A stretch of DNA of 64,000 nt from Alphaproteobacteria bacterium (GTDB lineage: Bacteria > Pseudomonadota > Alphaproteobacteria > JBMOFM01). The notes below the pieces were generated by a model. It was not told the origin of the DNA. It searched no databases and saw only the letters and a list, made by a program, of their open reading frames with translations. Position 1 is the stretch's first letter. Every line of letters begins with the position of its first letter. A program made the position numbers and the translations under genes. Below, piece by piece: positions 11,532-53,466 of this stretch. The stretch covers positions 50,013 through 114,012 of the forward strand of contig JBMOFM010000006.1 in assembly GCA_049318825.1 (NCBI GenBank). Direction: 5' to 3'.

Positions 11532-13982
11532 ATGTCATCTCAAAATAATTTTTTTCTGAATAAATTACTTATCGCCAGTTTGGCAGCTCCTTTAGTGTGT
11601 TGGGCTGCTGTTGCTGATGCAGCTTCAAGTAAAGCCAGTCATCCGGCGCATGTATCGGTGGCGCAATCAGGTGCTAAAGGCACTGTGGCCGCAAAAGAAA
11701 GCAAGCGCTCGGCAGTGCAAGCCGAGTCGCCAGAAAAAAATGAGGTAAAATCCTCTGTAAGAGAATCATCGCAATTAATTGATGATTGGGTGCGTAAACT
11801 GGTCGCCTCCAACTACTTATACCACACCAATATTTTAGGCTTGGGCGTGGATAGAGGCACGGAGCTTTCTTTTGTAGAAGGTGAAGCAAAATATTTCTTT
11901 CCAGTGCCTTCAGGGGTGCAGCCTTCAGAGGCCAGTTTTGATTTAGGTGCATCCTATCAATCGGCATTTGCTGGTCAGAGTCACTTACAATTATCCGTTG
12001 AGGATATGCCATTGGCAACCGTTGGTTTAACCTCTACGGATCAGGTTTTATCTTCTCGCTATCCGCTTTCTGTGGCCAATATTTCTCCTTGGATTAAAGA
12101 TGGTTTCTTAGCGGTAAAAGCTAGATATTCAGGCGCCTTCACTAAGGATAGATGCTATGATCAGCGCGTATTGGGGGATCGTTTATATATAACACCGCAA
12201 ACTGGTATCACCTTGTCTTACCCATCCTACCGTATTGATGGTTTAGAAGCGGCGATGCGCTTGTTGCCTCATGAAGTTACCATCAGTTTACCTGCGGGCC
12301 AGTTGGATGAGGGTGGTTTTGAAACAGCCCTGAGCATGGCTTCAAGCTTAACCTCGGCTGGTCATCAGGTGCGCTTTGAGCGTTTGCCACATGCGGGTAT
12401 GTTGGTTAATGCTGTTGGTGGTGCTGCTGAAAAGGCATTGGTTGCTGTGCAGGCGTTATACCCCGATGTGCAAAAAAATGAACGCGGCGTGGTTAATCTC
12501 CCCGATGATCGTTCGGCTTTAGCTTGGGCTTTGGCTATTACCGCTTACGAGGTGGATGATCGTCCATTGTCGGATCATGATAAGCGTCCGGCCAATGGTA
12601 GTATTGGTCAGATTGTGTTAGCCAGTCAGGCTGATCTTGATGCGTTGCGTTCTGTAGCGCAAAATCTGGGGGTGGTAGCTGATCAGCATAATGCCAAAGA
12701 ATTATCGGCATTATTAAAACAGCGTTTCTTGGTGCCAGCAGCATCCACGGCGTTGCAGCAAGATGCCAATGTTTCCCTGTTACGTTTGGGAACACAGCCT
12801 TTGGTGTGGTTGAAGCCTTCAGTGCAAGTTGCAGGTGGTACAGTTACTGGCCAGCCAGCCGCCGCTTGGTTGGGTGGTGTTTGGCAGCCAACGGCTTCTG
12901 GTCAGACCGCTGCTTTAGTGAGCGTGTCGCGTGATCACAATACCGGCAAAAACTTTGTGCCATGGGAAGAATTGCCCCAACAATCAACGGCTATTCAGGA
13001 TATATCCTACCGTGGTAGCTGGGTAGCTTCTGTTCCTTTGTATGCTTTGCCAGCAGGTACCCGCCCTGAGCGTTTGGTGTTGGATATTATGCCGGGTGTT
13101 GATAGTGTTTCCGGCCCAACTATTGCTCAGGTTGAGGTGAATGGTGTATTACTTTACGCTGAGCGTGTAGAACAAGGTAAGGTTCACCGGATTTCTGTGA
13201 CTATTCCAGTGGCTTTGGTTCGTTTGTTTAACACGGTTGAGGTTACTGTTCAGCGGGCATTAGATGGTGGTGATTGCTTGCGCACTCCCGCTTCTTACTC
13301 AGCGCAGCTGTTGCCATCAAGCCGTGTTGAATTATCGGATATGGGCGAGGCATCGGCTTTCCATGATTTAAGCAGCTTGTTTCGTCAGGGGTTGACTATT
13401 TATCTGCCGCAATATGCAGCAGAGCAATCGGAAATATGGTTGGAAGCTTTATCGGCTCTTTCTCCCGGTTTGATTAGCCCTAATATTAACTCAAAAATCC
13501 AGTTTGTGGCTTCTGGGTCAACGCCGGCTAAACCAACTAGTCACTTCCTTGCTTTTGGGGTGCCATTGCCAGAGGGTGTTGTGGAGCCACCAATTTTGTT
13601 GGATAAAGGCCGTGTAACAGTACGTGCTTTGGATAATTCTGTGTTGCTTGATCTTGTTCCTGCTCAACCTTTGTGGGTGGCTCAATTAACCAAAATGAGC
13701 GATTATCAAGGCTTATGGCTATCCAGTCAAGCCATGGTGCCACCTCCAACTTGGAACAAGATTGGTTTGGATAGGGGGGATACTGCATTCTTAGATCGCG
13801 AACGTATTTCCTTATACCTACATTTGCGGTCACCAGCAGAGGCGCGGGTTGAATACCCAGCCACCAGTACAGTTCAGGATGTTTTGAAGCGTTATTGGAC
13901 CGCAGCTTTGGTGTTGTTGTGGTTGGTATTGAGTTTGGTGTTTGCCTTGTATCTGAAGCGGCACTACCGTTCTAAAAACTAA
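11532..13982 (+). CDS. large periplasmic protein with signal peptide and a single C-terminal TM anchor. BcsB-like architecture (putative polysaccharide synthase periplasmic subunit).
   Basis: 816 aa. N-terminal signal LLIASLAAPLVCWAAVADA, then a soluble part of about 770 aa, then a C-terminal hydrophobic helix ALVLLWLVLSLVFALYL followed by KRHYRSKN. It is immediately upstream of a BcsA-like GT2 synthase. The assignment rests on architecture and context only. Confidence 0.4.
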   Translation: MSSQNNFFLNKLLIASLAAPLVCWAAVADAASSKASHPAHVSVAQSGAKGTVAAKESKRSAVQAESPEKNEVKSSVRESSQLIDDWVRKLVASNYLYHTNILGLGVDRGTELSFVEGEAKYFFPVPSGVQPSEASFDLGASYQSAFAGQSHLQLSVEDMPLATVGLTSTDQVLSSRYPLSVANISPWIKDGFLAVKARYSGAFTKDRCYDQRVLGDRLYITPQTGITLSYPSYRIDGLEAAMRLLPHEVTISLPAGQLDEGGFETALSMASSLTSAGHQVRFERLPHAGMLVNAVGGAAEKALVAVQALYPDVQKNERGVVNLPDDRSALAWALAITAYEVDDRPLSDHDKRPANGSIGQIVLASQADLDALRSVAQNLGVVADQHNAKELSALLKQRFLVPAASTALQQDANVSLLRLGTQPLVWLKPSVQVAGGTVTGQPAAAWLGGVWQPTASGQTAALVSVSRDHNTGKNFVPWEELPQQSTAIQDISYRGSWVASVPLYALPAGTRPERLVLDIMPGVDSVSGPTIAQVEVNGVLLYAERVEQGKVHRISVTIPVALVRLFNTVEVTVQRALDGGDCLRTPASYSAQLLPSSRVELSDMGEASAFHDLSSLFRQGLTIYLPQYAAEQSEIWLEALSALSPGLISPNINSKIQFVASGSTPAKPTSHFLAFGVPLPEGVVEPPILLDKGRVTVRALDNSVLLDLVPAQPLWVAQLTKMSDYQGLWLSSQAMVPPPTWNKIGLDRGDTAFLDRERISLYLHLRSPAEARVEYPATSTVQDVLKRYWTAALVLLWLVLSLVFALYLKRHYRSKN

Positions 13983-14119: not shown

Positions 14120-16072
14120 TTGCTCTCGAATAAAGTATTTTTCATGTTACGTGCAGACAGTGATATAGGTCAATTTTTGATTGCTAAGGGGTTATTGAGA
14201 TCTGAGGCATGGTTGTCAGCTATTGCCAATGCCAAGATAGATAATAAACCATTATCCGAGGTTCTTCAGCGTGAAGCGGGGATAAATAAGGATGAGTATT
14301 TTCAGTCAACGGCTCAGTATTATAACCTGCCTTATGCAGATCTTGCTGCTTTTCCACCTGATATTTCCTTGTTTAAGTTGGATGATATGCAAGAATATGT
14401 CACCAATCAGGTGGTGCCATGGAAGATGGAAAATGGCAGAATGCTATTGGCAACCGCCTATCCAGGGCCAGATACTTTATTGTATGCCATGCGCCGCTAT
14501 GGTTCTTCTGTTGGCTTGGCGGTAGCTTCCGATGTGGCGGTAAAAAATGCACTACAGCATTTATATGGTGATGAAGCCTCGCATCTGGCTGTGCATGGTT
14601 TGAAAGAGAAGGATATAGACTCTTCTGCTTCTACCGTGTTGACTTTTCCCCAAAAGATATTTCTTTATATTCTTGCGTCTTGTATCCTATTGGGTTTCGC
14701 TTTTGATGGTTGGCGTACCTTATTGGTGATTAATATTGTGATGACATTCTTTTATTTGGGCAATTTTGTGCTTAAATCAGCCTTATTGTGGGTTGGTGGA
14801 CGTACTCGCCGCGTAGAAAATGATCGCTTGCAGTTGATGGCTGATAATCTACGGGATGAAGATTTGCCTGTTTATAGTATTTTAGTGCCTATGTACAAGG
14901 AAGCTCGAATATTAGAGGGGTTGGTGCAAAGTTTGCAGAAACTGGATTATCCGCCAGAAAAGCTTGATATTAAATTGGTGCTTGAGCAAGATGATTTGGA
15001 AACATTAGAAGCGGCCAAAGCCATGAATTTGGATAGCCGTTTTGATGTGGTGATAGTGCCCACAACTTTGCCCAAAACCAAGCCTAAGGCCTGTAATTAT
15101 GCGCTGCATTTTTGCCGTGGCGATTATATTGTTATTTATGATGCAGAAGACAAGCCTGAGCCGGATCAATTGCGTAAGGCTGTGGCGACTTTCAATATTT
15201 CCTCCCCTAAGGTTGTGTGTTTGCAGGCCTGCTTAAATTATTATAATGCCGAAGAAAATTGGCTGACGCGATTATTTACCTTGGATTATTCTTTATGGTT
15301 TGATTTTTTGCTCCCCGGCTTAGAAAAATGGAATATTCCTATTCCGCTGGGAGGGACATCCAACCATTTTAGGATCGCTGCTTTACGTGAGGTATGGGGC
15401 TGGGATCCATATAATGTGACGGAAGATGCGGATTTGGGTTTACGTTTAGCGCGTAAAGGCTATAGCGTTAGTATTGTGCCTTCTACCACTTTTGAAGAGG
15501 CCAATTGCCATATGGGTAATTGGGTAAAGCAGCGTTCTCGCTGGATTAAGGGATATTTTCAAACATTTTTTGTGCATTTACGCACCCCCATTGCTTTGTG
15601 GAGAACCTTGGGAACAAGGGGCTTTTTCGGCTTTTTGTTTTTTATTGGTGGCACCATGCTATCGGGTATCCTTAACCCCATATTCTGGGCAATGTATATT
15701 TTTTGGCTAGTCAGCGGTACCAGTGCCCTTGATCCCATGTTTCCCGGACTATTATTCCATATCAGTTTGTTTAACTTGATGATTGGCAATGGTATATTTA
15801 TTTTCTTGATGTTGGCGGCTCCGGTACGTAGAGGCTGGCTGGAATTGGCACCATTTGCTCTTACCGTATTTTTATATTGGGTGTTGATGTCGATTGCCGC
15901 ATGGCGTGCGCTCATTCAGCTGGTTAAAAATCCTTTTTACTGGGATAAAACGGTGCATGGTATCAGTAAACATAAGAATCAAGAAAATGATAAGGGGGGG
16001 CCATCCTCTGGTAATTTCTCATCGCACAGCTTTAATGACCGCTTGCGTAGTTTGCGTCAAGGGAGGCCATAG
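14120..16072 (+). CDS. processive family-2 glycosyltransferase (BcsA/CrdS-like beta-glycan synthase) with an N-terminal T2SSE_N/MshEN-like cytoplasmic domain
   Basis: 650 aa. About 170-aa N-terminal soluble domain containing IGQFLIAKGLLRSEAWLSAI...PLSEVLQ; two TM helices; a GT-A core with acidic D motifs (DAED) and QRSRW (Q-x-x-R-W); four C-terminal TM helices; then a short tail with no PilZ domain. Confidence 0.7.
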   Translation: MLSNKVFFMLRADSDIGQFLIAKGLLRSEAWLSAIANAKIDNKPLSEVLQREAGINKDEYFQSTAQYYNLPYADLAAFPPDISLFKLDDMQEYVTNQVVPWKMENGRMLLATAYPGPDTLLYAMRRYGSSVGLAVASDVAVKNALQHLYGDEASHLAVHGLKEKDIDSSASTVLTFPQKIFLYILASCILLGFAFDGWRTLLVINIVMTFFYLGNFVLKSALLWVGGRTRRVENDRLQLMADNLRDEDLPVYSILVPMYKEARILEGLVQSLQKLDYPPEKLDIKLVLEQDDLETLEAAKAMNLDSRFDVVIVPTTLPKTKPKACNYALHFCRGDYIVIYDAEDKPEPDQLRKAVATFNISSPKVVCLQACLNYYNAEENWLTRLFTLDYSLWFDFLLPGLEKWNIPIPLGGTSNHFRIAALREVWGWDPYNVTEDADLGLRLARKGYSVSIVPSTTFEEANCHMGNWVKQRSRWIKGYFQTFFVHLRTPIALWRTLGTRGFFGFLFFIGGTMLSGILNPIFWAMYIFWLVSGTSALDPMFPGLLFHISLFNLMIGNGIFIFLMLAAPVRRGWLELAPFALTVFLYWVLMSIAAWRALIQLVKNPFYWDKTVHGISKHKNQENDKGGPSSGNFSSHSFNDRLRSLRQGRP

Positions 16073-17970: not shown

Positions 17971-18978
17971 ATGAGGCTGCTTGTTGTAGATGATTCTGAT
18001 ATTTCGCGTGCCATGATTGGTGCTATTCTTAGCCGTGCTGGTTATGAGAATATTATTTTTGCCAATAGTGCCGATGAAGCCTTTGCTATTTTGGATATAG
18101 ATAATAACGCAGAAAAATCAGGCCCGTTGGTGGATTTAATTCTGCTGGATGTGTTAATGCCTAAGGTAAATGGCTTGGAAGCCTGCGCTAGAATTAAGGC
18201 CAATGTGCGTTATCGTCATGTGCCGGTGATTATTGCCACCACTTTAGTGGATGAAGAATATATGGCACAGGCTTTTACAGCGGGTGCTATCGATTTTGTT
18301 ACCAAGCCAGTTTCAGCGTTGGAATTGGTGTGCCGCACCCGCAATGCGCTGAAATTGAAAATGGAGATGGATCGCGCCTTGCAGCGTGAAAATGAATTGG
18401 TGTTATTATTGGCGGAAGCCCGCAGCACTGGTTCTGCTATTGGGATGAAGCTACCGCAGGTAAGCATAGATGTAACCACGGGGTTGCCCAATTTATTAGT
18501 GTTGGAGCATACGGTAGAATGGTTGTGCCAAAACAAGCTGTTTTCGCCCCTATCATTAAGTTTTTTTGAGATTAATGATTTTGCGGCCTATCAAACCTAT
18601 CAAGGGCATCCCGCGGCGGATCGTTTATCATTTTTAGTGGCCACGGCGTTACAGCGCCAATTATTGCATTTGGGGGCCAGTTTATTTCATGTGCGGGCGG
18701 GATTATTTGCCGTGATTGACCGCGATGCAGAATGGGAAAAATTACAACAGAGCGTGCCCGCCATTGTGGATGCTGTTTCTACGTTGCGTTTACCCCACGC
18801 TCATGCCACCGAGGGGGAGATTGTGACCTTGTCGGCGGCGGCGGTTTTTGCGGATAGTGGTCAGCGTTTGCAGCATCACTGGTTGATCAGGGGGGCAGAG
18901 GCCAATTTAGAAGACGCCAAAAAACTGGAAGATAAGCTAAAATTGGTGAAGTTGGTTGATTGGTTAGCGGTGAATTAG
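17971..18978 (+). CDS. response regulator: REC receiver domain plus a degenerate GGDEF-like C-terminal domain
   Basis: REC features: VVDDSD, phospho-acceptor D in LILLDVLMP, and T/K positions. The C-terminal half has a GGDEF-like fold signature (GLPN, INDFAAYQTYQGHPAADRL) but the catalytic GG(D/E)EF position reads RAGLF, so it is probably not an active cyclase. Confidence 0.6.
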   Translation: MRLLVVDDSDISRAMIGAILSRAGYENIIFANSADEAFAILDIDNNAEKSGPLVDLILLDVLMPKVNGLEACARIKANVRYRHVPVIIATTLVDEEYMAQAFTAGAIDFVTKPVSALELVCRTRNALKLKMEMDRALQRENELVLLLAEARSTGSAIGMKLPQVSIDVTTGLPNLLVLEHTVEWLCQNKLFSPLSLSFFEINDFAAYQTYQGHPAADRLSFLVATALQRQLLHLGASLFHVRAGLFAVIDRDAEWEKLQQSVPAIVDAVSTLRLPHAHATEGEIVTLSAAAVFADSGQRLQHHWLIRGAEANLEDAKKLEDKLKLVKLVDWLAVN

Positions 18979-19057
18979 GCTGCATGGATAAGACCCCCAT
19001 AGCCTGCGCTGAGCAGTGGATGGGGGGTATTTTTTACTGGTTGGATTTTTAATAATG

Positions 19058-19864
19058 AAGAACATAACAACATTAAAAATAGTCACATTATTGGCTTGGG
19101 GCGCTGTATTTGGTGCTGGGGAAGCAAGAGCGGGTGCTTGGACATTAAACCCTGGGGTGGGGCAGGTGATCACCAGTATTACCGCGGGTAATGCCAGCAG
19201 CTATTATGCTGATAATAGTGGCAAGAAATTGAATAAAACCGAGCTAACGGTTTATGGCGAATATGGGGTGAACCCATGGCTTACGGCCATTGTTGCGCCG
19301 CGCCAACAATGGTTTCGTTACAAACAAACTGGCTTTGCTAATAATGGCGATTTTACCTCGGTAGAGGCTGGCTTTCGCATGCGTTTATGGCAAAGCAATG
19401 CTTCGGTATTTTCGTTTCAGCTCACTGGTATTACCTCGTTGCGTGATTCTAGCAGTGGCGGTAATAATTTTGGCGGCAAGGGCGTGGAATATGATGTGCG
19501 TGGCTTATATGGCTATGGTATTTCGCCATTTATGGTCTCGAAGGGTGAACATGCCGATTTGTTTAGCCTGCCCATGTATGTGAATGCCGAAATCGCTTTC
19601 CGTGGGCGACCATCGCCATTATCGGATGAGGTGCGCACCGATATTGCCTTGGGCATTAAACCCAGCGATCGTTGGGAAATTCCTTTGCAATATTATGGCA
19701 TTTATGGGTTGGATGATGGTTATACCGGCCATAAGCTGCAATTATCTGGCATTTATGCCGTGGCGCCCGATTGGTTGGTGCAAGGCGGTGGCTATTACAC
19801 TTTTGCGGGGTCTGATTTCCCTAAAGAGCGCGGTGGCTTGCTGGCCGTGTGGAAGAAATTTTAA
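19058..19864 (+). CDS. small outer-membrane beta-barrel protein (possible porin or exporter)
   Basis: Signal peptide LAWGAVFGAGEARA; alternating amphipathic beta-strand pattern; C-terminal aromatic residue (...LAVWKKF), which is the OMP signature. Start moved to MKNITTLK. Confidence 0.5.
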   Translation, partial: KNITTLKIVTLLAWGAVFGAGEARAGAWTLNPGVGQVITSITAGNASSYYADNSGKKLNKTELTVYGEYGVNPWLTAIVAPRQQWFRYKQTGFANNGDFTSVEAGFRMRLWQSNASVFSFQLTGITSLRDSSSGGNNFGGKGVEYDVRGLYGYGISPFMVSKGEHADLFSLPMYVNAEIAFRGRPSPLSDEVRTDIALGIKPSDRWEIPLQYYGIYGLDDGYTGHKLQLSGIYAVAPDWLVQGGGYYTFAGSDFPKERGGLLAVWKKF

Positions 19865-19897: not shown

Positions 19898-21214
19898 ATG
19901 TGTTACACATTGCCCATGCCTTTATCCAGCCCTTCACCAAACCCTAGCGCGGCCGCTTCTGCGGTTGATTCCCTGCAGCAATATCGCTTGCAACAAGTGG
20001 AACAAGAGTTGCAAGAGCTGAAAGCGCGCGCGCAGGAAAGCCAGAAAGACTGGTTGCAGCGTTTAGAAAATAGCCAGAAAGAGTGGCGCAACGAAATTCA
20101 GGTGGAGCGGGATCAATATAACAAATCCGATGAACACCACCTCAATTTATACGAAAAACACCTCAATACGATTAGCGTTATTTTGGGTTTATTCGCAGGT
20201 GTGGTTGTGCTACTGAACTTTTTAGGGTGGCTGTTCGGGCGAAAATGGGTGAATGATTTTCTTGCTAAAAAAATCAATGAAAGCTTGGATAAAAAAGTAG
20301 ATGAACATATTAAAACATTCATTGACCCTCTTGAAACAAAGTTAAAGCAGAAAATTGTAGATCTTGAAGAACAAGGCCAACAGCTAATAGCTGAGCAAAA
20401 ACAGCAAGGCAAGTATCTACAAGCAACCCAATATTATGTGGATGCTGGCCGAGCGCTTGAAGAAAGAAATTATCTCCAAGCGATTGATTTATATAATGAC
20501 GCCATTGAGCTGAACCCGAAATTTGCTGAAGCCTATAATAATCGTGGGAATGCTAAGGCCGCGCTTGGTAAGCATGAAAAAGCAATCGAGGATTATAATG
20601 AAGCGATTAAGTTGAATGAGAATTATGCTGAGGCCTATAATAACCGTGGGAATGCTCATAGAAATCTTGGTGAGCATGAAGAGGCACTGGCAGATTATAA
20701 TAAGGCGATTGAGCTAAATGAGAATCTTGATATGCCCTATAATAATCGCGGGGTTGCTAAAGCAAGCCTTGGGAACTATGAAAAGGCAATCGAGGATTAT
20801 AATGAAGCGATTAAGTTGAATGAGAATTATGCTGATGCCTATCATAATCGTGGGAATGCTAAGGCCGCGCTTGGTGAGCACGAAGAGGCAATCACGGATT
20901 TTGATAAGGCGATTGAGCAGAACCTCAATGATGCCGAGACCTATAATAATCGTGGAGTTGCTAAAGCAAGACTTGGGAAGTACGAAGAGGCATTGGCGGA
21001 TTTTGATAAGGCAATCAGCTTGAAGCATGATTATGCTGGTGCTCATATTAATAAAGCTCGTATTTTTGCGCAGCAAAATCAGCCAACAAAGGCCTTGGTG
21101 GCCTTAGAACAAGCTATTCTCTATGATAAAGGCTTCAAAAAGCAAGCTAAGGAAGAAGCTGTTTTCAAGGTTTTGCAGGATAATCCAGAGTTTATAAAAT
21201 TAACAAAAGAATAG
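19898..21214 (+). CDS. membrane-anchored coiled-coil plus TPR-repeat protein
   Basis: N-terminal coiled coil and one TM (VILGLFAGVVVLLNFLGWLF), then at least 7 near-identical 34-aa TPR units (AEAYNNRGNAKAALGKHEKAIEDYNEAIKLNENY). The DNA-level repeats create antisense shadow ORFs. Confidence 0.6.
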   Translation: MCYTLPMPLSSPSPNPSAAASAVDSLQQYRLQQVEQELQELKARAQESQKDWLQRLENSQKEWRNEIQVERDQYNKSDEHHLNLYEKHLNTISVILGLFAGVVVLLNFLGWLFGRKWVNDFLAKKINESLDKKVDEHIKTFIDPLETKLKQKIVDLEEQGQQLIAEQKQQGKYLQATQYYVDAGRALEERNYLQAIDLYNDAIELNPKFAEAYNNRGNAKAALGKHEKAIEDYNEAIKLNENYAEAYNNRGNAHRNLGEHEEALADYNKAIELNENLDMPYNNRGVAKASLGNYEKAIEDYNEAIKLNENYADAYHNRGNAKAALGEHEEAITDFDKAIEQNLNDAETYNNRGVAKARLGKYEEALADFDKAISLKHDYAGAHINKARIFAQQNQPTKALVALEQAILYDKGFKKQAKEEAVFKVLQDNPEFIKLTKE

Positions 21215-26970: not shown

Positions 26971-27837
26971 GTGTTATGCGTTATGGCCGAAATTCTGGAT
27001 AAAAATGGGGATGTTATTTTTTCTATGAAGGGTTCCGATCTGGAAGCCGTATCTTACCTGCAAAATAATACAACTATTTCTATGCGTGGTATAGCCTTAG
27101 AAAAATGTAAGGGTAGTTTTTTTGATCAATTGGGGAAACTGCAATCCAGATCTGCTAATGTTTTTTCCAGCACTTCTCATAGACCCAAAGATATGCGGGA
27201 GGGTAGCTTTGTTCAATGCTGGCATGAAAACTATTATCCGATATCAGCCTATGATTTTTCTGGGGCAATTTTTAAGGATTGTTTTATAAAGGTTTCTTCT
27301 TCAAAAGCAGATGGTTTTCACTTATGTAATTTCCGCGCTGCGCAATTTATTAACTGCACCATCACCGGAAATTTTCATTATTGCGATCTTTCAGGGGTAG
27401 ATTTTAGTAACAGTAATACAGCCAGGGTTAAATTTGGTGATAATTGGTATGATGATAATAGTCATTTAGTTAGTTATGGGGTTGCTCTACCCAAAAAAGT
27501 GGAGCGCGTAAAAAAAAGAATAGAGCAAATTTTCAATTGGGATAAAATTATTCAAACACCGCCGCAACATGTTGGCGGTATTACGCCAGCCCTACAACAA
27601 CAGCTGGAAGCTATTATTAATGCTTCGCCTGAGCAGGCACAGCGATTATTACATGAAGCGAGACCGCAAGATATATTGGCTCTGGAATTGGCGGCTGATC
27701 TTTCTACGCTTTACAATAAAGTTGCCTTACCCGCCGATGATTCACTTGAAAATCACCAGCAGCGGCCTGATTTAACCAACCAACAAATTGCTGATATTGT
27801 GCGTATGGTCATGAAAAATCGCGGCCGCCGTCCTTGA
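26971..27837 (+). CDS. hypothetical protein with pentapeptide-repeat-like segments, carried on a roughly 1.1-kb insertion
   Basis: 288 aa. Central CNFRAAQFINCTITGNFHYCDLSGVDFSNSNTARVKFGD resembles pentapeptide-repeat units. Flanked by the 84-bp direct repeats. Confidence 0.45.
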   Translation: MLCVMAEILDKNGDVIFSMKGSDLEAVSYLQNNTTISMRGIALEKCKGSFFDQLGKLQSRSANVFSSTSHRPKDMREGSFVQCWHENYYPISAYDFSGAIFKDCFIKVSSSKADGFHLCNFRAAQFINCTITGNFHYCDLSGVDFSNSNTARVKFGDNWYDDNSHLVSYGVALPKKVERVKKRIEQIFNWDKIIQTPPQHVGGITPALQQQLEAIINASPEQAQRLLHEARPQDILALELAADLSTLYNKVALPADDSLENHQQRPDLTNQQIADIVRMVMKNRGRRP

Positions 27838-28581: not shown

Positions 28582-28890
28582 TTATAGCAAGCCTCCATTA
28601 TCATATATCATTGTGGGGAGTGGAGAAATCTGTTGTTTCTGGCTAATGCCAACAATACCAGAAAACCCAATAAGAAAACCAATAATCATCAAAGAAGCCA
28701 TGGTAGGCATAAGATAAGGAATGTTAAATTCACGCAAGAAACCCATGGATTGTAGACTAAAACGGGTTTTTTCCATTTGTTGATGGTGATAGCTGCAAGC
28801 AATAATCCGTGACAGAAAATCTTCTGATGGCGTGAATTTCTTACGTTCAAGTAATATTTTTTCGAGTTCAGCATCGCTTAAATTTTTCAT
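28582..28890 (-). CDS. putative anti-sigma factor (single-pass membrane)
   Basis: 102 aa with a cytoplasmic N-terminus and one TM (YLMPTMASLMIIGFLIGF). Translationally coupled to the ECF sigma gene (ATGA overlap at 28890). Confidence 0.4.
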   Translation of the reverse strand: MKNLSDAELEKILLERKKFTPSEDFLSRIIACSYHHQQMEKTRFSLQSMGFLREFNIPYLMPTMASLMIIGFLIGFSGIVGISQKQQISPLPTMIYDNGGLL

Positions 28891-29468
28891 TACTTTACCC
28901 TCACATCATTATGCTCATTTAAGGACGCTAATTTTATGCGCAGTTTATTTTTTGCCCGCATAATTAAAGATTGTAAGGCTTTTACACTCATGCCCATGAT
29001 ACTGGCCGCTTCCTGATTACTGAATTCTTCATAAAAACACAAATTCAATGCCATTTGTTGATGCTGTGGTAAGGATAAGATTGCCGCCCCCAGCATTTTT
29101 TGTTTTGCTTGTTCCTCGATTTTTACATCAATGGCCATGCTCTCATCCTGCAATTCTTCTAGGGCTTCATTCACCGTATTTTTCTTGGATTTTATGAGGT
29201 TTAGTGCCCTATTGGTAATAATTTGATAAAACCATGTGGTAAATTTTACCCCTCTATGAACATCAAAACGCCAAGGCTCTTTCCATAATTGTAGAAATGC
29301 CTCTTGTACAACATCTTCAGCGTCTTGAGAATGCTGAACAATACGCTGCGCTACCCGAAAAAAACGCACACCATGCCGTTGAACCAGTTCAGCAAATGCA
29401 GAATGAACCCCCTTTGAAATATCGACAACCAACTCTTCATCCGTGAATGAACGAAAATTCTCCTGCAT
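28890..29468 (-). CDS. ECF (sigma-70 family group IV) RNA polymerase sigma factor
   Basis: Region 2 (DAEDVVQEAFLQLW) and region 4 HTH (QEAASIMGMSVKALQSLIMRAKNKLR). Confidence 0.8.
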   Translation of the reverse strand: MQENFRSFTDEELVVDISKGVHSAFAELVQRHGVRFFRVAQRIVQHSQDAEDVVQEAFLQLWKEPWRFDVHRGVKFTTWFYQIITNRALNLIKSKKNTVNEALEELQDESMAIDVKIEEQAKQKMLGAAILSLPQHQQMALNLCFYEEFSNQEAASIMGMSVKALQSLIMRAKNKLRIKLASLNEHNDVRVK

Positions 29469-30724: not shown

Positions 30725-32125
30725 TTAAACAGGTAAAATAATTTCCACCATCAATCCTCGATTCCCATCGCTAAACATCGGATTGTTCAATAGTGTGAGT
30801 TTACCCTGATGCATTTTTACAATCGCTTTTACCAAACTTAAACCCAAACCATTGCCGGGAGAATTTCTGGCTGGATCAAGGCGAGTAAAAGGCTCGGTTA
30901 CCTTTTCTCTGGCCGCGGATGGAATACCGATACCCGTATCGGTAATAGTGATAACAACGTAATTCATGTTTCTCTTTAGGCTTAAAAAAACCTCCCCTCC
31001 TTGCTGATTATATTTGATAGCATTATCAATGAGATTAGAAATGGCTTGAATAAGAAGTTCTCGATGAACCTTACCCATCACTTCAGAATCAATAGAAGCG
31101 GTGAATTTTAACCCTTCATCCTCCACTAATGGCTGGTATAAATCAACTATATCTTCTACCAATTGTGAGAGATCAATTTCTGCAAGCGTTGATATTTTTC
31201 TACCCGCTTCAATTTCTGCAATCGATAATAAGGCTTGGAAGGTACGCAATATTTGATCTGTTTCTTGAATAGCGTGATCAATGGCTTGTGAACGGTTTTC
31301 TTCATCCTTATCTTCTAATGCCAGTTCAAGCCTTGTTTTTAAGCGGGTGAGGGGGCTGCGCAAATCATGGGCAATATTATGGGTGACATGACGAATGCCA
31401 ATCATTAAGCGTTCAATATCCGCCAACATATTATTCAAAATTTCCCGCAAGCGATCAAACTCATCTTCCGCGCCGGAAAGCGGAAAACGGTGGCTAAAAT
31501 CCCCCGCCATAATTTCACGGGCATTTTCAGTCACCACATCAATCTGGCGTAACATCCGGTGTGCCATTAACACGCCGCCCACCGTGCCAAAACCTGCCGC
31601 AATTAACAGGGAAGAAATCATGGCATCGAGAATAAGTAGGCGTAAATCTTCCCGCTGTTGTACATCGCGGCCAACGGCTAGGATGCCTTTATCCACAGAA
31701 ATCAATTGTGCCTGCATTAAATGGCCAGAGCGTTTCCCTGAATTGTTGCTAGCAACAAAGCTTTTCCACCCCTTTATTTCATTGGAGAGTAAAGGGTAAG
31801 CTTCGCTGCTATCCACATGTATTCCTGCTATTTCATCCACATATAAATAGAAATTTTCTTCACTTTGTTGTGATTTTTGTTGTACCAGATTAGCCAAGGC
31901 TTGTTTGCCGTCGGTTTTATAAACCGACATCAGCTCATCCATTTCCGTGTACACATGGGCATAGGTTTTGGTGTCGATTTTATCAATAGTGCGCCAGTAA
32001 ATATTGGCCAATACTGCAAGCAGCGAGACATAAAATAACCATGCATACAAAATAATCAGCCGAAAACTGCTGGTGCGTACAAAACGGCGAATGGTTTTTA
32101 ATACATTACTCGGCTTCATGATCAA
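30725..32125 (-). CDS. sensor histidine kinase
   Basis: Two TM helices plus HAMP; HisKA H-box HDLRSPLTRL; HATPase motifs GIGIPSAAREKVTEPFTR and GNGLGLSLVK. Confidence 0.85.
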   Translation of the reverse strand: MIMKPSNVLKTIRRFVRTSSFRLIILYAWLFYVSLLAVLANIYWRTIDKIDTKTYAHVYTEMDELMSVYKTDGKQALANLVQQKSQQSEENFYLYVDEIAGIHVDSSEAYPLLSNEIKGWKSFVASNNSGKRSGHLMQAQLISVDKGILAVGRDVQQREDLRLLILDAMISSLLIAAGFGTVGGVLMAHRMLRQIDVVTENAREIMAGDFSHRFPLSGAEDEFDRLREILNNMLADIERLMIGIRHVTHNIAHDLRSPLTRLKTRLELALEDKDEENRSQAIDHAIQETDQILRTFQALLSIAEIEAGRKISTLAEIDLSQLVEDIVDLYQPLVEDEGLKFTASIDSEVMGKVHRELLIQAISNLIDNAIKYNQQGGEVFLSLKRNMNYVVITITDTGIGIPSAAREKVTEPFTRLDPARNSPGNGLGLSLVKAIVKMHQGKLTLLNNPMFSDGNRGLMVEIILPV

Positions 32126-32798
32126 TCTTCAACATATAGCCATTACCCCGCATGGTGTGCAGCAACATGACATCAAAATCCTTATCCAGCTTTTGCCGTA
32201 GGCGCGAGACATGCACATCAATGACGTTGGTTTGTGGATCAAAATTAATATTCCACACTTTTTCTAGCAACATGTTGCGGGTTACCAATTGTTGGGGGTG
32301 GCGCATAAAAAATTCTAACAGGGCAAATTCTCTTGGTTTCAGCTCTAATTCAATGCCCTGCCGCCATGCTTGCCTTGTAATTAAATCTAAGGTTAATTCT
32401 CCCAATGTAAGCCTTGTTTGCGTGCTATTCGCATTTCGTCGCCGCCCTAATACTTCTATTCTGGCCAGTAACTCAGTAAAAGCAAAAGGCTTGGTGAGAT
32501 AATCATCGCTACCACCTTTAAGGCCGGTGAGGCGATCATCCAACTGCCCCAAGGCACTTAAAATAAGGATGGGTGTATCATTACCATCTTCTCGTAAGGC
32601 TTGGATGACCGATAAACCATCTTTTTTGGGGAGCATGCGGTCAATGACCAACACATCACATAATTTTTGGCGAGCAGCTTCTAGGCCAGATTCACCATCC
32701 GCACAATGCACCACCTGATGACCAGCATCTTGCAGGCCCTTTACCACTAAGGCGGCTGCTTTTTCATCATCTTCTACCAAAAGGACATTGAGCCCCAT
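32106..32798 (-). CDS. OmpR-family response regulator
   Basis: REC (LLVEDDE, D in VLVIDRMLP) plus a winged-helix C-terminus. Overlaps the kinase gene. Confidence 0.85.
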   Translation of the reverse strand: MGLNVLLVEDDEKAAALVVKGLQDAGHQVVHCADGESGLEAARQKLCDVLVIDRMLPKKDGLSVIQALREDGNDTPILILSALGQLDDRLTGLKGGSDDYLTKPFAFTELLARIEVLGRRRNANSTQTRLTLGELTLDLITRQAWRQGIELELKPREFALLEFFMRHPQQLVTRNMLLEKVWNINFDPQTNVIDVHVSRLRQKLDKDFDVMLLHTMRGNGYMLKIDHEAE

Positions 32799-32851
32799 AT
32801 TTTTCTCCATGTTGGTATATCGGTAACCATTTTTCTCTATGATCTACCATA

Positions 32852-49903: not shown

Positions 49904-50491
49904 TTATGGCACACCCGCCAGATAGCCTTCCACCAAAGCAAAGGCCATGGCTTCTGGTGAAGAAGCGCCGGTAATCGCCAATTTGCCTGAAAGAGCTAAA
50001 ATAGTGATGCCATGAATACCCGCCCATAATATTTTGGCGGTTTGTTTTATGCTGGCTTCATCTTGCAGATTGGGGGCAATAGCTGTTTCTAATTGTTGGA
50101 AAAACCGTTGTAATTTTTCTTGATACCATAAGGGTATCTCATAATCTGGGCTGGCATGATACTCAAATAAGCCAAGCCAAGATTGTTGATGCTGCTCGCT
50201 ATATTGCAGATAAAATCGTGCCAAGCGGTGAATTAAGGAAAGATTATCTTCTTGCGCCAAGGCGGCCATCATGGCTTCATACCAATGGTCAAGGGTTTTG
50301 GCGTTAATATGGGTCATTAAATGATCGTAACTACCAAAAACATGATATAAAGTGCCCACGGAATAGCCTATTTTATTGGCCACCGCGCGGGCACTGAAAT
50401 TTTTTATTCCCTGTTCGCTAATCAGTTCATGCCCTGTATCAATAATCAGCTGTACCAATTCATCACGGCTATGATCCGAGCGTCTGGCCAT
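49904..50491 (-). CDS. TetR-family transcriptional regulator
   Basis: N-terminal HTH ...FSARAVANKIGYSVGTLYHVF. About 195 aa. Confidence 0.75.
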   Translation of the reverse strand: MARRSDHSRDELVQLIIDTGHELISEQGIKNFSARAVANKIGYSVGTLYHVFGSYDHLMTHINAKTLDHWYEAMMAALAQEDNLSLIHRLARFYLQYSEQHQQSWLGLFEYHASPDYEIPLWYQEKLQRFFQQLETAIAPNLQDEASIKQTAKILWAGIHGITILALSGKLAITGASSPEAMAFALVEGYLAGVP

Positions 50492-50493
50492 GG

Positions 50494-51555
50494 CTAGCCC
50501 CCCCATAAATGGCGTAAAGATTCTTCAGCTTTTTTATGTTGCGGGGTGAAGTCTATATCCCCCTTACCACCAGCTTGTGGATCGGTGAGCCAACGCCAGA
50601 TTAATACATGGCTGATATAGGGTTTGTTCAGCGTTTCAATCCACCAGCTTAAAATCTTGGCCTGCAACAGCTCATCAAATGGTGCTTGCCGTTCTTCGGG
50701 GCTGCGCCATGGTTCTGCTTGGGCATTTTGTGCCGACATCAAACCAATTTCGGTAATACTCACCGGCTTTTTATAGCGGGCGGAAAGGCGGGCTATTTGC
50801 TGTTCGGTTTGTTGCATTACCCCTTTTATATATTGCTCGTTCGGGGTTTCCCCCATTTTGGGGTAAAGGGTGATGCCAATCTCATCCACCAATGGCCAGA
50901 AAGGAACGCTGAGCGCGCCTTCTATACCATGAGCAACATAGATAATTTTACCGCGATAAACCCGCCTCACCCGCTCAATTAATAAAGGCCAGCGCGGGTG
51001 ATCTTGCGATTTATTCAACTCGGTACCCACGGCAAAATAAGCGCAACCAGCCTGTTGGGCAAGGGTGGCATAATATAAAATCACGCGTTCATAGGCATCA
51101 AACCAATGTTCCCACGCCTCACCATTGGGCGGTTCTATGGCACCCGCCCAACTGCCTTCTACCCATATATGGGGCTTTAGCATAATGGTAAAGCCTTGTT
51201 CGTGCGCCTGTTTAATGCCTTGCAATAAATCATTATCATGCACGGCCCTACCAAAATCTACCCGTGCGGCGCGGTTATTTTCCATCCACGCAAAAGGAAT
51301 AAAGGCCAGAACCCTAGCCCCCACAGAATCGGCCAATTGTAGCGATTGGCGAAACCCAGCACTGCCATAGGGCACATGATCGGCTTGAATAAGGTTAAAA
51401 CCACCCATGGGTTTAATAATGGTGGGGTTACGGGTGGTTTTTTTAAGGGGTGATTTGTTGTATAACCTGCCACCATTCAGTAATAATCCAGCCCCGCCCA
51501 AAATCCCCACAAGGCCAGTAAACATAATTTGCCGCCTGCTCAGCCATTTTGCCAT
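50494..51555 (-). CDS. secreted (Tat-type signal) glycoside hydrolase, clan GH-A-like (GH5/GH26/GH113-type (beta/alpha)8)
   Basis: N-terminal SRRQIMFTGLVGILGGAG looks like a twin-arginine signal. Candidate catalytic acid/base is GTELN and candidate nucleophile is TEIG. Confidence 0.4.
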   Translation of the reverse strand: MAKWLSRRQIMFTGLVGILGGAGLLLNGGRLYNKSPLKKTTRNPTIIKPMGGFNLIQADHVPYGSAGFRQSLQLADSVGARVLAFIPFAWMENNRAARVDFGRAVHDNDLLQGIKQAHEQGFTIMLKPHIWVEGSWAGAIEPPNGEAWEHWFDAYERVILYYATLAQQAGCAYFAVGTELNKSQDHPRWPLLIERVRRVYRGKIIYVAHGIEGALSVPFWPLVDEIGITLYPKMGETPNEQYIKGVMQQTEQQIARLSARYKKPVSITEIGLMSAQNAQAEPWRSPEERQAPFDELLQAKILSWWIETLNKPYISHVLIWRWLTDPQAGGKGDIDFTPQHKKAEESLRHLWGG

Positions 51556-52232
51556 CAGCTTAAAGCCTTACTTAAACTGGCCGCCAGTTTGCGGTATAAT
51601 AGTGTTTCTGCAGTATAAGCTTGCTGCATGAGTTGATAATCAGGGTCAAGCGGCAGTAATTCCCGCGCTACATCGGTCAAATGGCCTTCTTCTTCTTGTA
51701 ATAGGCCTGCCAATGAAAATTCAGAGGGGGTGTATTGTTGATAAGCCCACACCGCCCGTACTTCAACCAACCCCGTTACCAATAAATAACAAGTGCGGGT
51801 AATATGCTGGCTGCGGTTTTTCTGCACCAACCGATTGACCGTGGCATCCAACCGTGCAAAATAGAGGCGGGCGGCACTGGCGGCCAGTAGCTCATCATTT
51901 TCCCATCCCAAGCTTTTTTCGGCCAGTTTTTCTGCTTGCCGCTTAAAGAAAAAAGCATGGCGTGCCTCTTCAGCTAAATGCTGTAATACATCCTTATCGG
52001 GTTGAAGCCCATGCGAATGCGTCGCCATAATTTTGCGGCTGCCAATATGTTCCATCATGGATAGGGTATTGCAAAATTTAGCATGGGTTATTTTATTAGC
52101 CACCACCCGTTGCAATATATGCTCCAGCAATAAATTATCAGGATTGCTGGGGGCAAGCAGGCCAAAAACCTGCCATGGCTCATGCAGCGGCGATGCGGGT
52201 TTGGTCGGTATAGGCGCGGTCGATAAGCTCAT
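51555..52232 (-). CDS. hypothetical protein with two E-x-x-H motifs (possible ferritin-like/di-metal carboxylate protein)
   Basis: EEARHAFFF and EEEGH on predicted helices. Start uncertain (track 52316; MSLSTAP at 52232; later Mets possible). Overlaps the bioA 3' end. Confidence 0.3.
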   Translation of the reverse strand: MSLSTAPIPTKPASPLHEPWQVFGLLAPSNPDNLLLEHILQRVVANKITHAKFCNTLSMMEHIGSRKIMATHSHGLQPDKDVLQHLAEEARHAFFFKRQAEKLAEKSLGWENDELLAASAARLYFARLDATVNRLVQKNRSQHITRTCYLLVTGLVEVRAVWAYQQYTPSEFSLAGLLQEEEGHLTDVARELLPLDPDYQLMQQAYTAETLLYRKLAASLSKALS

Positions 52233-53466
52233 AAACCCGTTCCAATTCTTCAGTGGGGGTACAATAGGGCGGTAATATATATAGCACATGCCCCAATGGC
52301 CGCAATAGCACCCCATGCCTCAGAAACCAGTGCCGCAGGGAAGGGCCTAAACAGGCCAGATAACCAGCATCATCGGCTGGAAATTCAATGGCGGCCATCA
52401 CCCCGCAGCTACGGGTGACGGCATGGTGCTTATTGGCAAAATCCTTCACAAAATCTGCATGTAAGCCGCTAATACGCTTGATCTGTGTGTGGGGTTCATC
52501 GGTTTCCCATATTTTGCAATTGGCTACGGCCGCAGCACAGGCCAAAGGGTTTGCCGTGAAGGAGCTGGAATGGAAAAAACTGCGCGCGCGCGAGGTGCTA
52601 TAAAAGGCTTGATAAATTTCTTCACTGCATAAAGTGGCGGCCAAGGGTAAAAAACCAGCGGTTAAACCCTTGGCGGTGCATAAAATATCTGGCACAACGC
52701 CGGCTTGTTCACAGGCAAATAATGTACCGCTGCGCCCCCAACCTGTCATCACCTCATCAGCAATCACATAAATGCCATGAGCACGCACCATGGCCACCAT
52801 TTGGGCAAAAATTTCTGGCCGCCACATTAACATGCCGCCCGCGCCCAAAATCAAGGGTTCTACAATCATCGCCGCTACTTCTGTGCCATGCTTTTGTAAA
52901 TAATCGGCCAGCCATGCTAGGCTGGCTTGTTCATTGGCTGGGTGCGGAAAAGGAATGCGATCCACCGCAAAAAGCAGCGAATCATAGCTTTGTGAAAAAA
53001 TATTACGCGCTCCCACCGCCATGGCACCAAAACTATCCCCATGATAGGCATGCTCCATGGCTAAAATTCTGGTGCGTGGCGGTTGCTGGTGATCCATAGC
53101 GTGGTGATAATGTGCCCCCACCGCCATTTTCAGGGCAACTTCTACCGCCAAAGAGCCGGAATCAGTAAAAAATACTTTGGATAATCCCTTAGGAGCAAAT
53201 TTCAGCAAATATTGCGCCAATTCTTGTGCAGGGGGGTGGGTGAAACCCGCAAAAATTACCTGATCCAATCGAGCCGCCTGCTCACTAATGGCCTTGACCA
53301 ATCGTGGATCTCCATGGCCATGGGTAATCACCCACCATGAAGATATAGCATCCAGAATGGGGGTGCCCTGTTCAGGAAACAACCAGCACCCTTCAGCACT
53401 TTCTATACTGATAATATTTTCTTCTAACCCATGTTGGGTAAAAGGGTGCCAAATAACAGAGCTCAT
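52180..53466 (-). CDS. bioA: adenosylmethionine-8-amino-7-oxononanoate aminotransferase
   Basis: Class-III aminotransferase with N-terminal IWHPFTQH, DEVMTGWGRSG, and PLP-Lys in CTAKGLTAG. Start moved to MSSVIW (53466). The track start at 53493 lies inside a tandem repeat array. Confidence 0.75.
   Translation of the reverse strand: MSSVIWHPFTQHGLEENIISIESAEGCWLFPEQGTPILDAISSWWVITHGHGDPRLVKAISEQAARLDQVIFAGFTHPPAQELAQYLLKFAPKGLSKVFFTDSGSLAVEVALKMAVGAHYHHAMDHQQPPRTRILAMEHAYHGDSFGAMAVGARNIFSQSYDSLLFAVDRIPFPHPANEQASLAWLADYLQKHGTEVAAMIVEPLILGAGGMLMWRPEIFAQMVAMVRAHGIYVIADEVMTGWGRSGTLFACEQAGVVPDILCTAKGLTAGFLPLAATLCSEEIYQAFYSTSRARSFFHSSSFTANPLACAAAVANCKIWETDEPHTQIKRISGLHADFVKDFANKHHAVTRSCGVMAAIEFPADDAGYLACLGPSLRHWFLRHGVLLRPLGHVLYILPPYCTPTEELERVYELIDRAYTDQTRIAAA

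Follow-up and report, generated by a model that had tools for sequence, protein, structure and literature searches.

The synthases of secreted exopolysaccharides (EPS) are usually viewed as gated by cyclic di-GMP (c-di-GMP). In the Pss system, the protein PssE is encoded beside a pair of genes for a GT2 glycosyltransferase and a BcsB-like subunit. PssE of Listeria is presented, in the accessible part of PMC4125290, as a degenerate-GGDEF c-di-GMP receptor that activates an EPS synthase; PelD of Pseudomonas is another such activating receptor encoded in an EPS operon, and BcsE, a factor of cellulose secretion in E. coli, is a REC*-GGDEF* tandem with a degenerate receiver and an intact, c-di-GMP-sensing inhibitory site (I-site) (both PMC7439463). 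NfrB of E. coli is an MshEN-GT2 synthase which binds c-di-GMP and is activated by a directly interacting, active cyclase, DgcJ; the nfr operon of pseudomonads itself includes a gene for a GGDEF protein (PMC8669469). Synthases of the Xag type are known from a candidate stalk cluster of iron-oxidising bacteria with the gene order BcsB-like, XagB, XagC (accessible parts of PMC4643136 and PMC8250860), and from Xanthomonas oryzae pv. oryzicola, in which an rpfG mutant requires xagA and xagB for its increased biofilm formation (accessible part of PMC3609779). Here we describe a response regulator of 335 amino acids encoded within a Xag-type cluster in a 64,000-nucleotide stretch of contig JBMOFM010000006.1 of an alphaproteobacterial genome (the window), in which an intact receiver is joined to a degenerate GGDEF domain. 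We propose, with moderate confidence, that this protein serves the synthase complex as a regulatory subunit which is controlled by phosphorylation and has no catalytic activity.

The regulator gene opens with an ATG preceded by a GAGG Shine-Dalgarno-like motif (Table 1), and its product, encoded on a contig of 123 kb, is labelled by NCBI as "MAG: response regulator [Alphaproteobacteria bacterium]". Pfam recognises a Response_reg domain (aa 4-120, 78.4 bits, E 5.8e-22) and a GGDEF domain (aa 165-318, 45 bits against a cut-off of 23.8 bits, E 1.3e-11), separated by a long helical linker. All the hallmarks of a receiver are found in alignments, namely D7, D8, D60, T90, F109 and K112-P113. An alignment of 81 sequences, in which the predicted phospho-acceptor Asp60 is invariant, served as input for an AlphaFold2 (AF2) model with a mean pLDDT of 90.7, consisting of the receiver (pLDDT mostly 94-98, about 78 in the loop 41-50), a single long helix from residue 116 to 153, and a GGDEF fold. 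The top structural matches of this model in Foldseek were WspR (3BRE, 3I5A), DgcR (6ZXB) and PleD; the GGDEF domains of the regulator and of WspR superpose at 2.5 A over 164 columns (TM 0.85), and the residues that define the fold are present (D167, T170, G171, G212, G235, G244 and T286). By its residues and by its fold, the receiver would qualify as phosphorylatable, phosphotransfer itself being a prediction.

The catalytic site of the GGDEF-like domain is lost. In pairwise alignments with solved cyclases, as well as in multiple alignments with canonical REC-GGDEF proteins, the residues RAGLF fall exactly on the GGEEF signature of the active site (A-site). The segment D-x-D-x-F-K-x-x-N, which makes metal, phosphate and guanine contacts in cyclases, is also altered, with E200/N202 in place of the DxD pair, A205 at the position of the catalytic lysine and Q208 at that of the guanine-binding asparagine, and the C-terminal "GRN" is replaced by "EDK". 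Retained from the guanine-binding region are the later aspartate, D217, and G212-H213. At the position of the RxxD I-site, five residues before the A-site, the sequence reads HLGA, and no RxxD occurs anywhere in the 335 residues of the protein. Since GGEEF has lost its two glycines and its two acidic residues, and the lysine and the asparagine are gone as well, the regulator is predicted not to be a diguanylate cyclase, although it has the GGDEF fold. These results bear out the original prediction, made from the bare sequence, which had read an intact receiver with its phospho-acceptor in LILLDVL, a GGDEF-like output domain with RAGLF at the catalytic position and no obvious I-site, and had concluded that the protein is probably not a cyclase; it had named two outcomes that would speak against it, a domain that is not GGDEF-like by profile and full catalytic residues after alignment, and the profile match and the alignments came out the other way.

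ATPase or other activities occur in some degenerate GGDEF domains, and E200 could still bind a metal, next to the retained D217 and G212-H213. Nevertheless, residual or altered catalysis despite RAGLF, be it weak cyclase activity, production of other cyclic nucleotides or hydrolysis of nucleoside triphosphates, seems to us extremely unlikely, as all four glycines and acidic residues of the signature are gone, the lysine and the asparagine are replaced, and the members of the family have no alternative motif in common. Moreover, when the GGDEF-like domain alone was searched against 1.84 billion representatives, 135 of the 149 nearest matches carried the canonical signature, and RAGLF is therefore a private, lineage-specific product of decay. 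Nothing above about 33% identity was found in this search except the domain itself and P0241 (35%), the top non-self match, which is a repeat protein and was dismissed as spurious. Short proteins combining a receiver with a degenerate GGDEF domain, also returned by this search, have no long linker and were assigned to other families.

The closest proteins to the full-length regulator, among 5.8 billion searched, share only 33-38% identity with it. These proteins make up a large REC-GGDEF-like family with a length of about 320 aa and with AAYRNGxI in the place of RYGGEEF, and a member of this family occurs in the gene order of the window in a Xanthobacteraceae metagenome-assembled genome (MAG) and in other contigs. 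Homologous neighbours in the same order were found in Xanthobacteraceae, Novosphingobium, Rhodopseudomonas palustris HaA2, Amorphus coralli and dozens of metagenome contigs, R. palustris HaA2 and A. coralli being the two cultured hosts of a full cluster. Identity between the window and these relatives is 50-51% for the synthase, 27-31% for the BcsB-like protein, 25-27% for the XagC-like membrane protein and 26-30% for the secreted protein encoded after the regulator. A scan of metagenomes with the synthase as query yielded 80 further loci, the genes of which were typed by iterated profiles. The recurrent cluster comprises a small gene, a BcsB-like gene, the gene for the MshEN-GT2 synthase, that for the XagC-like membrane protein (X), the regulator and a secreted protein (Y), followed by a GH113 gene on the opposite strand. 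A scan of genome contigs with a profile of the regulator alignment was also tried; its patterns fell in the receiver and retrieved mostly unrelated response regulators, the only true member being that of a Novosphingobium MAG (L003).

In all 44 related clusters, a gene for a receiver with a degenerate GGDEF domain follows the series of BcsB-like, MshEN-GT2 and XagC-like genes, and GG[DE]EF is kept in none of the 44 regulators encoded after the XagC-like gene. The sequence that replaces it depends on the lineage (RNGxI, KNGMI, GPGSF, EGDTF, DDGLF, and RAGLF in the window), and the receiver residues DD, D, T(S) and K are conserved in nearly all of the 44 proteins. Columns conserved at 80% or more in these syntenic copies number 45 of 118 in the receiver, 14 of 37 in the linker and 16 of 158 in the GGDEF-like domain, so that the linker is the best-conserved segment after the receiver. 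The window regulator itself is 44%, 49% and 20% identical to other cluster regulators in receiver, linker and GGDEF-like domain, respectively, the last being 23% identical to canonical cyclases. Given this profile, selection clearly acts on the phospho-input and on the helix that would transmit it, with the output domain keeping its fold and little else.

The same profile bears on the main rival explanation, in which the receiver and the linker would be the sole effector, through CheY-like binding or as a phosphate sink or relay connector, and the GGDEF-like domain would be a decaying appendage that serves folding or dimerisation. The scarcity of conserved columns in this domain compared to the receiver and the variability of the A-site replacement between lineages are in line with such a role, as is the similarity of the regulator, among NCBIfam models, to the single-domain EPS regulator EpsW. 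An appendage is less easily reconciled with the presence of a full-length GGDEF-like domain of about 170 aa in all 44 syntenic copies, none of which is truncated, or with the window domain, which is modelled at pLDDT above 90 with its fold-defining residues present, and we hold this explanation to be unlikely.

A different function for the degenerate domain would be that of a receptor with a non-canonical site for c-di-GMP, GTP or another nucleotide, which would pass the signal to the synthase much as PelD, PssE and BcsE do by means of their I-sites. Degenerate GGDEF receptors in EPS operons are well known (BcsE and PelD, PMC7439463; PssE, accessible part of PMC4125290), the window protein still has D217 and G212-H213, and RxxD is found at the I-site position without GG[DE]EF in A. 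coralli (L168 12364-13326), L098 and L099 only, as RLGD, RIGD and RVGD. These RxxD-keeping orthologues look like intermediates of decay, and might still bind c-di-GMP. The window regulator and 42 of the 44 syntenic relatives, however, are devoid of RxxD; the window protein has alanine for the lysine and glutamine for the asparagine and has lost the C-terminal arginine, and the synthase encoded in the cluster already bears a receptor domain of the MshEN type. A nucleotide receptor is, in our judgement, quite improbable.

Evidence on the input comes from most of the related clusters, in which the first gene, a small one, encodes an Hpt-like four-helix protein of about 110-130 aa with one invariant histidine. 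A profile of 16 such sequences matches structures of CheA P1 (E 2e-9), the conserved histidine aligning with the phospho-His region, and 14 of the 16 members match Pfam Hpt. The Hpt gene was found only in clusters carrying the regulator: both genes are present in 26 clusters, the regulator alone in 8 (the window included), neither in 7, and the Hpt gene alone in none. Genes for kinases, hybrid kinases or Hpt proteins lie no more than 9 kb away in roughly half of the regulator-containing loci. In A. coralli, genes for a hybrid histidine kinase, a REC protein, Hpt, BcsB, GT2, X, the regulator and Y are all encoded on one strand, and in R. palustris the genes that come after GH113 encode a REC-Hpt protein and then a PAS hybrid kinase. 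Most related clusters thus appear to have a putative Hpt phosphorelay built in.

The regulator of the window itself is an orphan. The sole kinase encoded in the window, a HAMP-HisKA-HATPase protein (30725-32125, - strand) 12 kb off, was considered as a partner of the cluster and rejected, being paired with its own OmpR-type regulator. This kinase and regulator pair (30725-32810, - strand) adjoins a gene for an ECF-type sigma factor (28890-29468).

The second protein of interest is the synthase, at the N-terminus of which Pfam recognises an MshEN domain (42.1 bits). MshEN domains are defined by two 24-residue motifs, RLGxxLVxxGLLxxxxLxxxLxxQ, with five residues between them, and mutation of any hydrophobic motif position lowers the affinity for c-di-GMP more than 10-fold (Wang et al., PMC5013675). 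In the AF2 model of the window synthase, the fold of the domain is present (helices 4-14, 20-33, 37-44 and 49-59; alpha/beta unit 79-127). The motifs depart from the canonical pair, with Asp for Arg1 and Ala for Gln24 in motif 1 and Ser for Gly3 in motif 2; the hydrophobic positions are mostly kept, with 2 of the 7 in motif 2 lost (Val7 to Gln, Leu21 to Thr). Loss of c-di-GMP binding by this domain is plausible.

Clusters that have the regulator and clusters that lack it were also compared for the fit of key MshEN positions to a relaxed motif. Position 1 of motif 1 fits in 3 of 41 regulator-containing clusters and in 7 of 11 members of a regulator-less clade, Gln24 of motif 1 is present in 1 of 41 and 7 of 11, and the turn residue (Gly, Ala or Ser) at position 10 of motif 2 in 7 of 41 and 11 of 11, respectively. 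With the regulator-containing locus L083 added, the counts become 1 of 42 for Gln24 and 7 of 42 for position 10 (Fisher p ~1e-5 and ~4e-7), figures behind which stand few evolutionary events rather than dozens, as the loci are phylogenetically clustered. Among L087-L166, the motifs are eroded at polar and turn positions (Arg1, Gln24, Gly10) in regulator clusters and near-canonical in the regulator-less sister clade, which has a different gene order. Strict mutual exclusion of the regulator and a canonical MshEN motif was considered and rejected: L099 has both, and some relatives keep the I-site. In a neighbour-joining tree of synthases, the window lies on a deep branch, and L098 and L099, which have the regulator and near-canonical motifs, branch at the base of the regulator-less clade, so that the regulator is probably ancestral and was later lost in this clade. 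In L083 (6627-10004), the synthase and the XagC-like protein were called as a single GT2-XagC fusion of 1125 aa; tblastn segments lie in different frames, and this call, a probable assembly frameshift, was for that reason not taken as evidence of a physical complex.

The state of the MshEN domain is relevant to a further explanation, in which the pseudo-cyclase would be an adaptor that heterodimerises with an active GGDEF protein encoded elsewhere and brings it to the synthase for local production of c-di-GMP. GGDEF domains do work as dimers, the DgcJ-NfrB complex provides an example of a cyclase docking on an MshEN-GT2 synthase, and the hydrophobic core of the MshEN motifs is kept. Yet it is precisely in the regulator-bearing clusters that MshEN has eroded polar contacts to c-di-GMP, and the surveyed loci have no conserved gene for an active GGDEF protein in the vicinity of the cluster, which makes an adaptor very unlikely. 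One may also speculate that a local c-di-GMP pair, an operon-encoded cyclase and its MshEN receptor as in DgcJ-NfrB, was turned into a nucleotide-free phospho-switch: the cyclase would have lost catalysis and the receptor its polar contacts to c-di-GMP, the phosphorylated pseudo-cyclase would bind the MshEN-like domain directly, as activating ligand in place of c-di-GMP, and the Hpt relay of the cluster would serve as input. We regard this scenario as unlikely.

Our preferred reading, that of a non-catalytic, phosphorylation-controlled subunit of the Xag-type synthase complex, makes use of these elements as follows. A histidine kinase/Hpt phosphorelay, unlinked in the window genome and encoded in the cluster in most relatives, would phosphorylate Asp60; the conserved helical linker would pass on the signal through a changed dimer or register state, as in WspR and DgcR; and the phosphorylated regulator would gate polymerisation post-translationally at the cytoplasmic face of the synthase complex. 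The prime candidate for its target is the MshEN-like N-domain of GT2, by analogy with DgcJ-NfrB. In this proposal, the architecture, the loss of sites, the synteny and the co-occurrence with Hpt and kinase genes are observed, and we infer that the receiver is phosphorylated, in which direction control is exerted and which protein the regulator contacts. The original prediction had already placed the protein in a polysaccharide locus near a GT2 protein with an MshEN domain, had pointed to a cognate orphan kinase, and had suggested a phosphorylation-dependent scaffold or activator of the adjacent synthase; the neighbouring genes are indeed those expected, the one kinase in the window has a regulator of its own, and the suggestion gains strength from the strictly conserved gene order, the co-occurrence with Hpt and the frequent hybrid kinases nearby.

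Several points weigh against this reading. The weak conservation of the GGDEF-like domain weakens the case for a fixed docking surface, of which one would expect stronger conservation. Near the window cluster there is neither an Hpt nor a kinase gene, and a phospho-donor for the regulator was not seen there. The physical link between regulator and synthase, for which the MshEN-like domain is a candidate partner, is drawn by analogy, and the retained hydrophobic contacts of this domain leave room for a synthase that may still be controlled by c-di-GMP, independently of the regulator. Transcription adds little: a terminator-like hairpin between the stop codon of the regulator and the next gene (7+4 bp stem, then UAUUUUUU) has a fold energy not significantly better than that of shuffled sequences (z -0.74). 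By its position 3' of the gene it may mark the end of the transcription unit, and shows nothing more. A scan for promoter and terminator consensus sequences gave no useful signal, with 24 promoter-like sites where 19.8 would be expected.

Table 1. Features of the regulator gene and of the associated polysaccharide cluster. Coordinates are those of the window, except for the last row, which refers to related loci.
Feature	Coordinates	Strand	Basis and remarks
Response regulator gene, REC + coiled-coil linker + degenerate GGDEF, 335 aa	17971..18978	+	Pfam, AF2, Foldseek; from ATG to end of stop codon
Receiver (REC) domain, aa 1-120; D7/D8, D60, T90 and K112 kept	17971..18330	+	Pfam, alignments
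Codon of predicted phospho-acceptor Asp60 (LILLD60VL)	18148..18150	+	Invariant in 81-sequence alignment
Long helical linker, aa 116-153, ALKLKxExDR..RE..L	18316..18429	+	DSSP helix 116-153; column conservation
Degenerate GGDEF-fold domain, aa 165-318	18463..18924	+	Pfam GGDEF; superposition on WspR
E200-I-N202-D-F-A205-A-Y-Q208 in place of D-x-D-x-F-K-x-x-N	18568..18594	+	Alignments
HLGA (H233-L-G-A236) at RxxD I-site position	18667..18678	+	Alignments
RAGLF (R242-A243-G244-L245-F246), former A-site, in place of GG(D/E)EF	18694..18708	+	Pairwise and multiple alignments
Terminator-like hairpin (CCCCCAU...AUGGGGG) followed by U-run	18994..19035	+	Sequence fold
BcsB-like periplasmic subunit, 816 aa, signal peptide and C-terminal membrane anchor	11532..13982	+	Weak Pfam BcsB match, 25.3 bits
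XagB-like processive GT2 synthase with N-terminal MshEN-like domain, 642 aa	14144..16072	+	Pfam MshEN and GT2 families
53-residue MshEN c-di-GMP motif region	14162..14320	+	Relaxed motif, 9/11 and 7/11 positions
XagC-like polytopic membrane protein, 611 aa	16080..17915	+	Positional homology; NCBI-called length agrees
Putative outer-membrane beta-barrel protein, signal peptide, C-terminal Phe	19055..19864	+	Conserved directly after regulator
TPR protein, N-terminal coiled coil, one membrane helix, TPR repeats	19898..21214	+	Cluster membership uncertain
GH113 glycoside hydrolase	50494..51555	-	Pfam GH113, 127 bits
Hpt-like small first gene of related clusters	L002 4115-4486; L167 6493-6876; L168 6703-7038		Profile; absent from window cluster

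The regulator gene is part of a same-strand polysaccharide cluster, in which it lies between the genes for the XagC-like membrane protein and the putative outer-membrane protein (Table 1). The BcsB-like protein is homologous to the product of the first large gene in related clusters. The synthase carries the motifs DAED, TED and QRSRW, corresponding to the D, D, D and QxxRW of processive enzymes, and its AF2 model (pLDDT 84.6) features an N-terminal four-helix bundle with an alpha/beta unit, a GT-A domain and membrane helices, with BcsA, hyaluronan synthases and chitin synthases as the nearest folds. Orthologues of this protein are named "glycosyltransferase XagB" in JGI and NCBI annotation, and at least 8000 XagB relatives were found at E <= 1e-50. 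The membrane protein X, which we take from its position to be XagC, has no Pfam family, and a word-indexed search of the 5.8 billion proteins returned only the query itself, as the relatives have about 25% identity to it and not a single 5-mer in common. One of its positional homologues gave a faint match to PF10131 (PTPS_related membrane protein). The product of the gene after the regulator is probably an outer-membrane barrel, its R. palustris orthologue having a weak match to PF13557, a family of such barrels. The TPR protein encoded next follows the cluster in the window genome only, is absent from related loci and has no lipoprotein signal. The flanks of the cluster are of a housekeeping nature, with argG and ribA upstream and UPF0262 and hisG downstream.

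Of the features that characterise Xag-type clusters, the window has the XagB-like GT2 protein and its BcsB-like and XagC-like neighbours, and lacks a linked GH113 gene (XagD by position): its GH113 gene lies about 31 kb from the cluster, whereas in most relatives it is adjacent. GH113 enzymes are beta-mannanases, and aggregates of Xanthomonas are dispersed by the mannanase ManA. As GH113 is linked to the cluster in most relatives, the polymer produced could be a beta-1,4-mannan-like one. The GH113 gene of the window adjoins a TetR-family gene (49904-50506) and an unannotated open reading frame of 252 aa (51555-52316). Elsewhere in the window, a protein of 368 aa with curlin-associated repeats (53582-54691, - strand; Pfam Curlin_rpt, 111 bits) is a possible curli-like amyloid subunit, and a protein of 288 aa (26971-27837, + strand) has weak pentapeptide-repeat matches, its match to NCBIfam HalA, the Hailong anti-phage effector (19.6 bits, cut-off 250), being probably meaningless.

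Xag-type synthases have a wide distribution, in Alphaproteobacteria of soil and water and beyond, and Xag systems have been implicated in the biofilms of Xanthomonas and proposed for the stalks of iron oxidisers. In the searchable literature, we found no paper that joins XagB with MshEN, no description of this regulator family or of this variant of the cluster, and nothing on the structure of the polymer, the regulation or the roles of the subunits of Xag-type synthases. As judged from the genes surveyed here, a degenerate GGDEF domain is the rule rather than a one-off in a widespread Xag-type cluster with a putative built-in phosphorelay. This points to a second regulatory flavour of Xag systems, a large clade with an Hpt protein and a REC-pseudo-cyclase module in which the MshEN motif has eroded in step. 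Unlike the c-di-GMP gating usually assumed for EPS synthases, control in this regulator-bearing flavour appears to be by phosphorelay. Such clusters may represent a natural test case for the rewiring of a second-messenger enzyme/receptor pair into a protein-protein switch, and the availability of cultured hosts, R. palustris HaA2 and A. coralli, makes the idea directly testable.

Compared with known systems, the window regulator resembles WspR, DgcR and PleD in domain order, in fold, and in having a phosphorylatable receiver connected by a long helical stalk to GGDEF. It differs from them in having RAGLF for GGEEF, in the loss of the Lys, Asn and Arg contacts, and in the absence of RxxD. With NfrB and DgcJ, the window shares an MshEN-fused GT2 synthase with a dedicated GGDEF protein, a pairing that is proposed for the window; in NfrB, however, MshEN is C-terminal and DgcJ is active, whereas in the window MshEN is N-terminal with an eroded motif and the GGDEF protein appears dead. 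The order of BcsB-like, XagB-like and XagC-like genes is the same as in Xag clusters, from which the window departs by its non-adjacent GH113 gene; a regulator and an Hpt protein go unmentioned for xagABCD of Xanthomonas and for the bcsB-xagBCD stalk cluster in the accessible parts of PMC3609779, PMC4643136 and PMC8250860. Like PelD and PssE, the regulator is a degenerate GGDEF protein encoded within a synthase-dependent EPS locus, but these two proteins have no receiver and depend on RxxD, and the window regulator has a receiver and no RxxD. BcsE comes close in another way, as a tandem of REC and GGDEF domains, the latter catalytically dead, in a synthase-dependent EPS system, and is in effect its mirror image: BcsE combines a degenerate receiver with an I-site, and the window regulator an intact receiver with a lost I-site. 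The input logic is reversed with respect to BcsE, with phosphorylation instead of c-di-GMP, and by its role the protein is most likely a pseudo-cyclase regulator of an EPS synthase, but one predicted to be under phospho-control and without an I-site.

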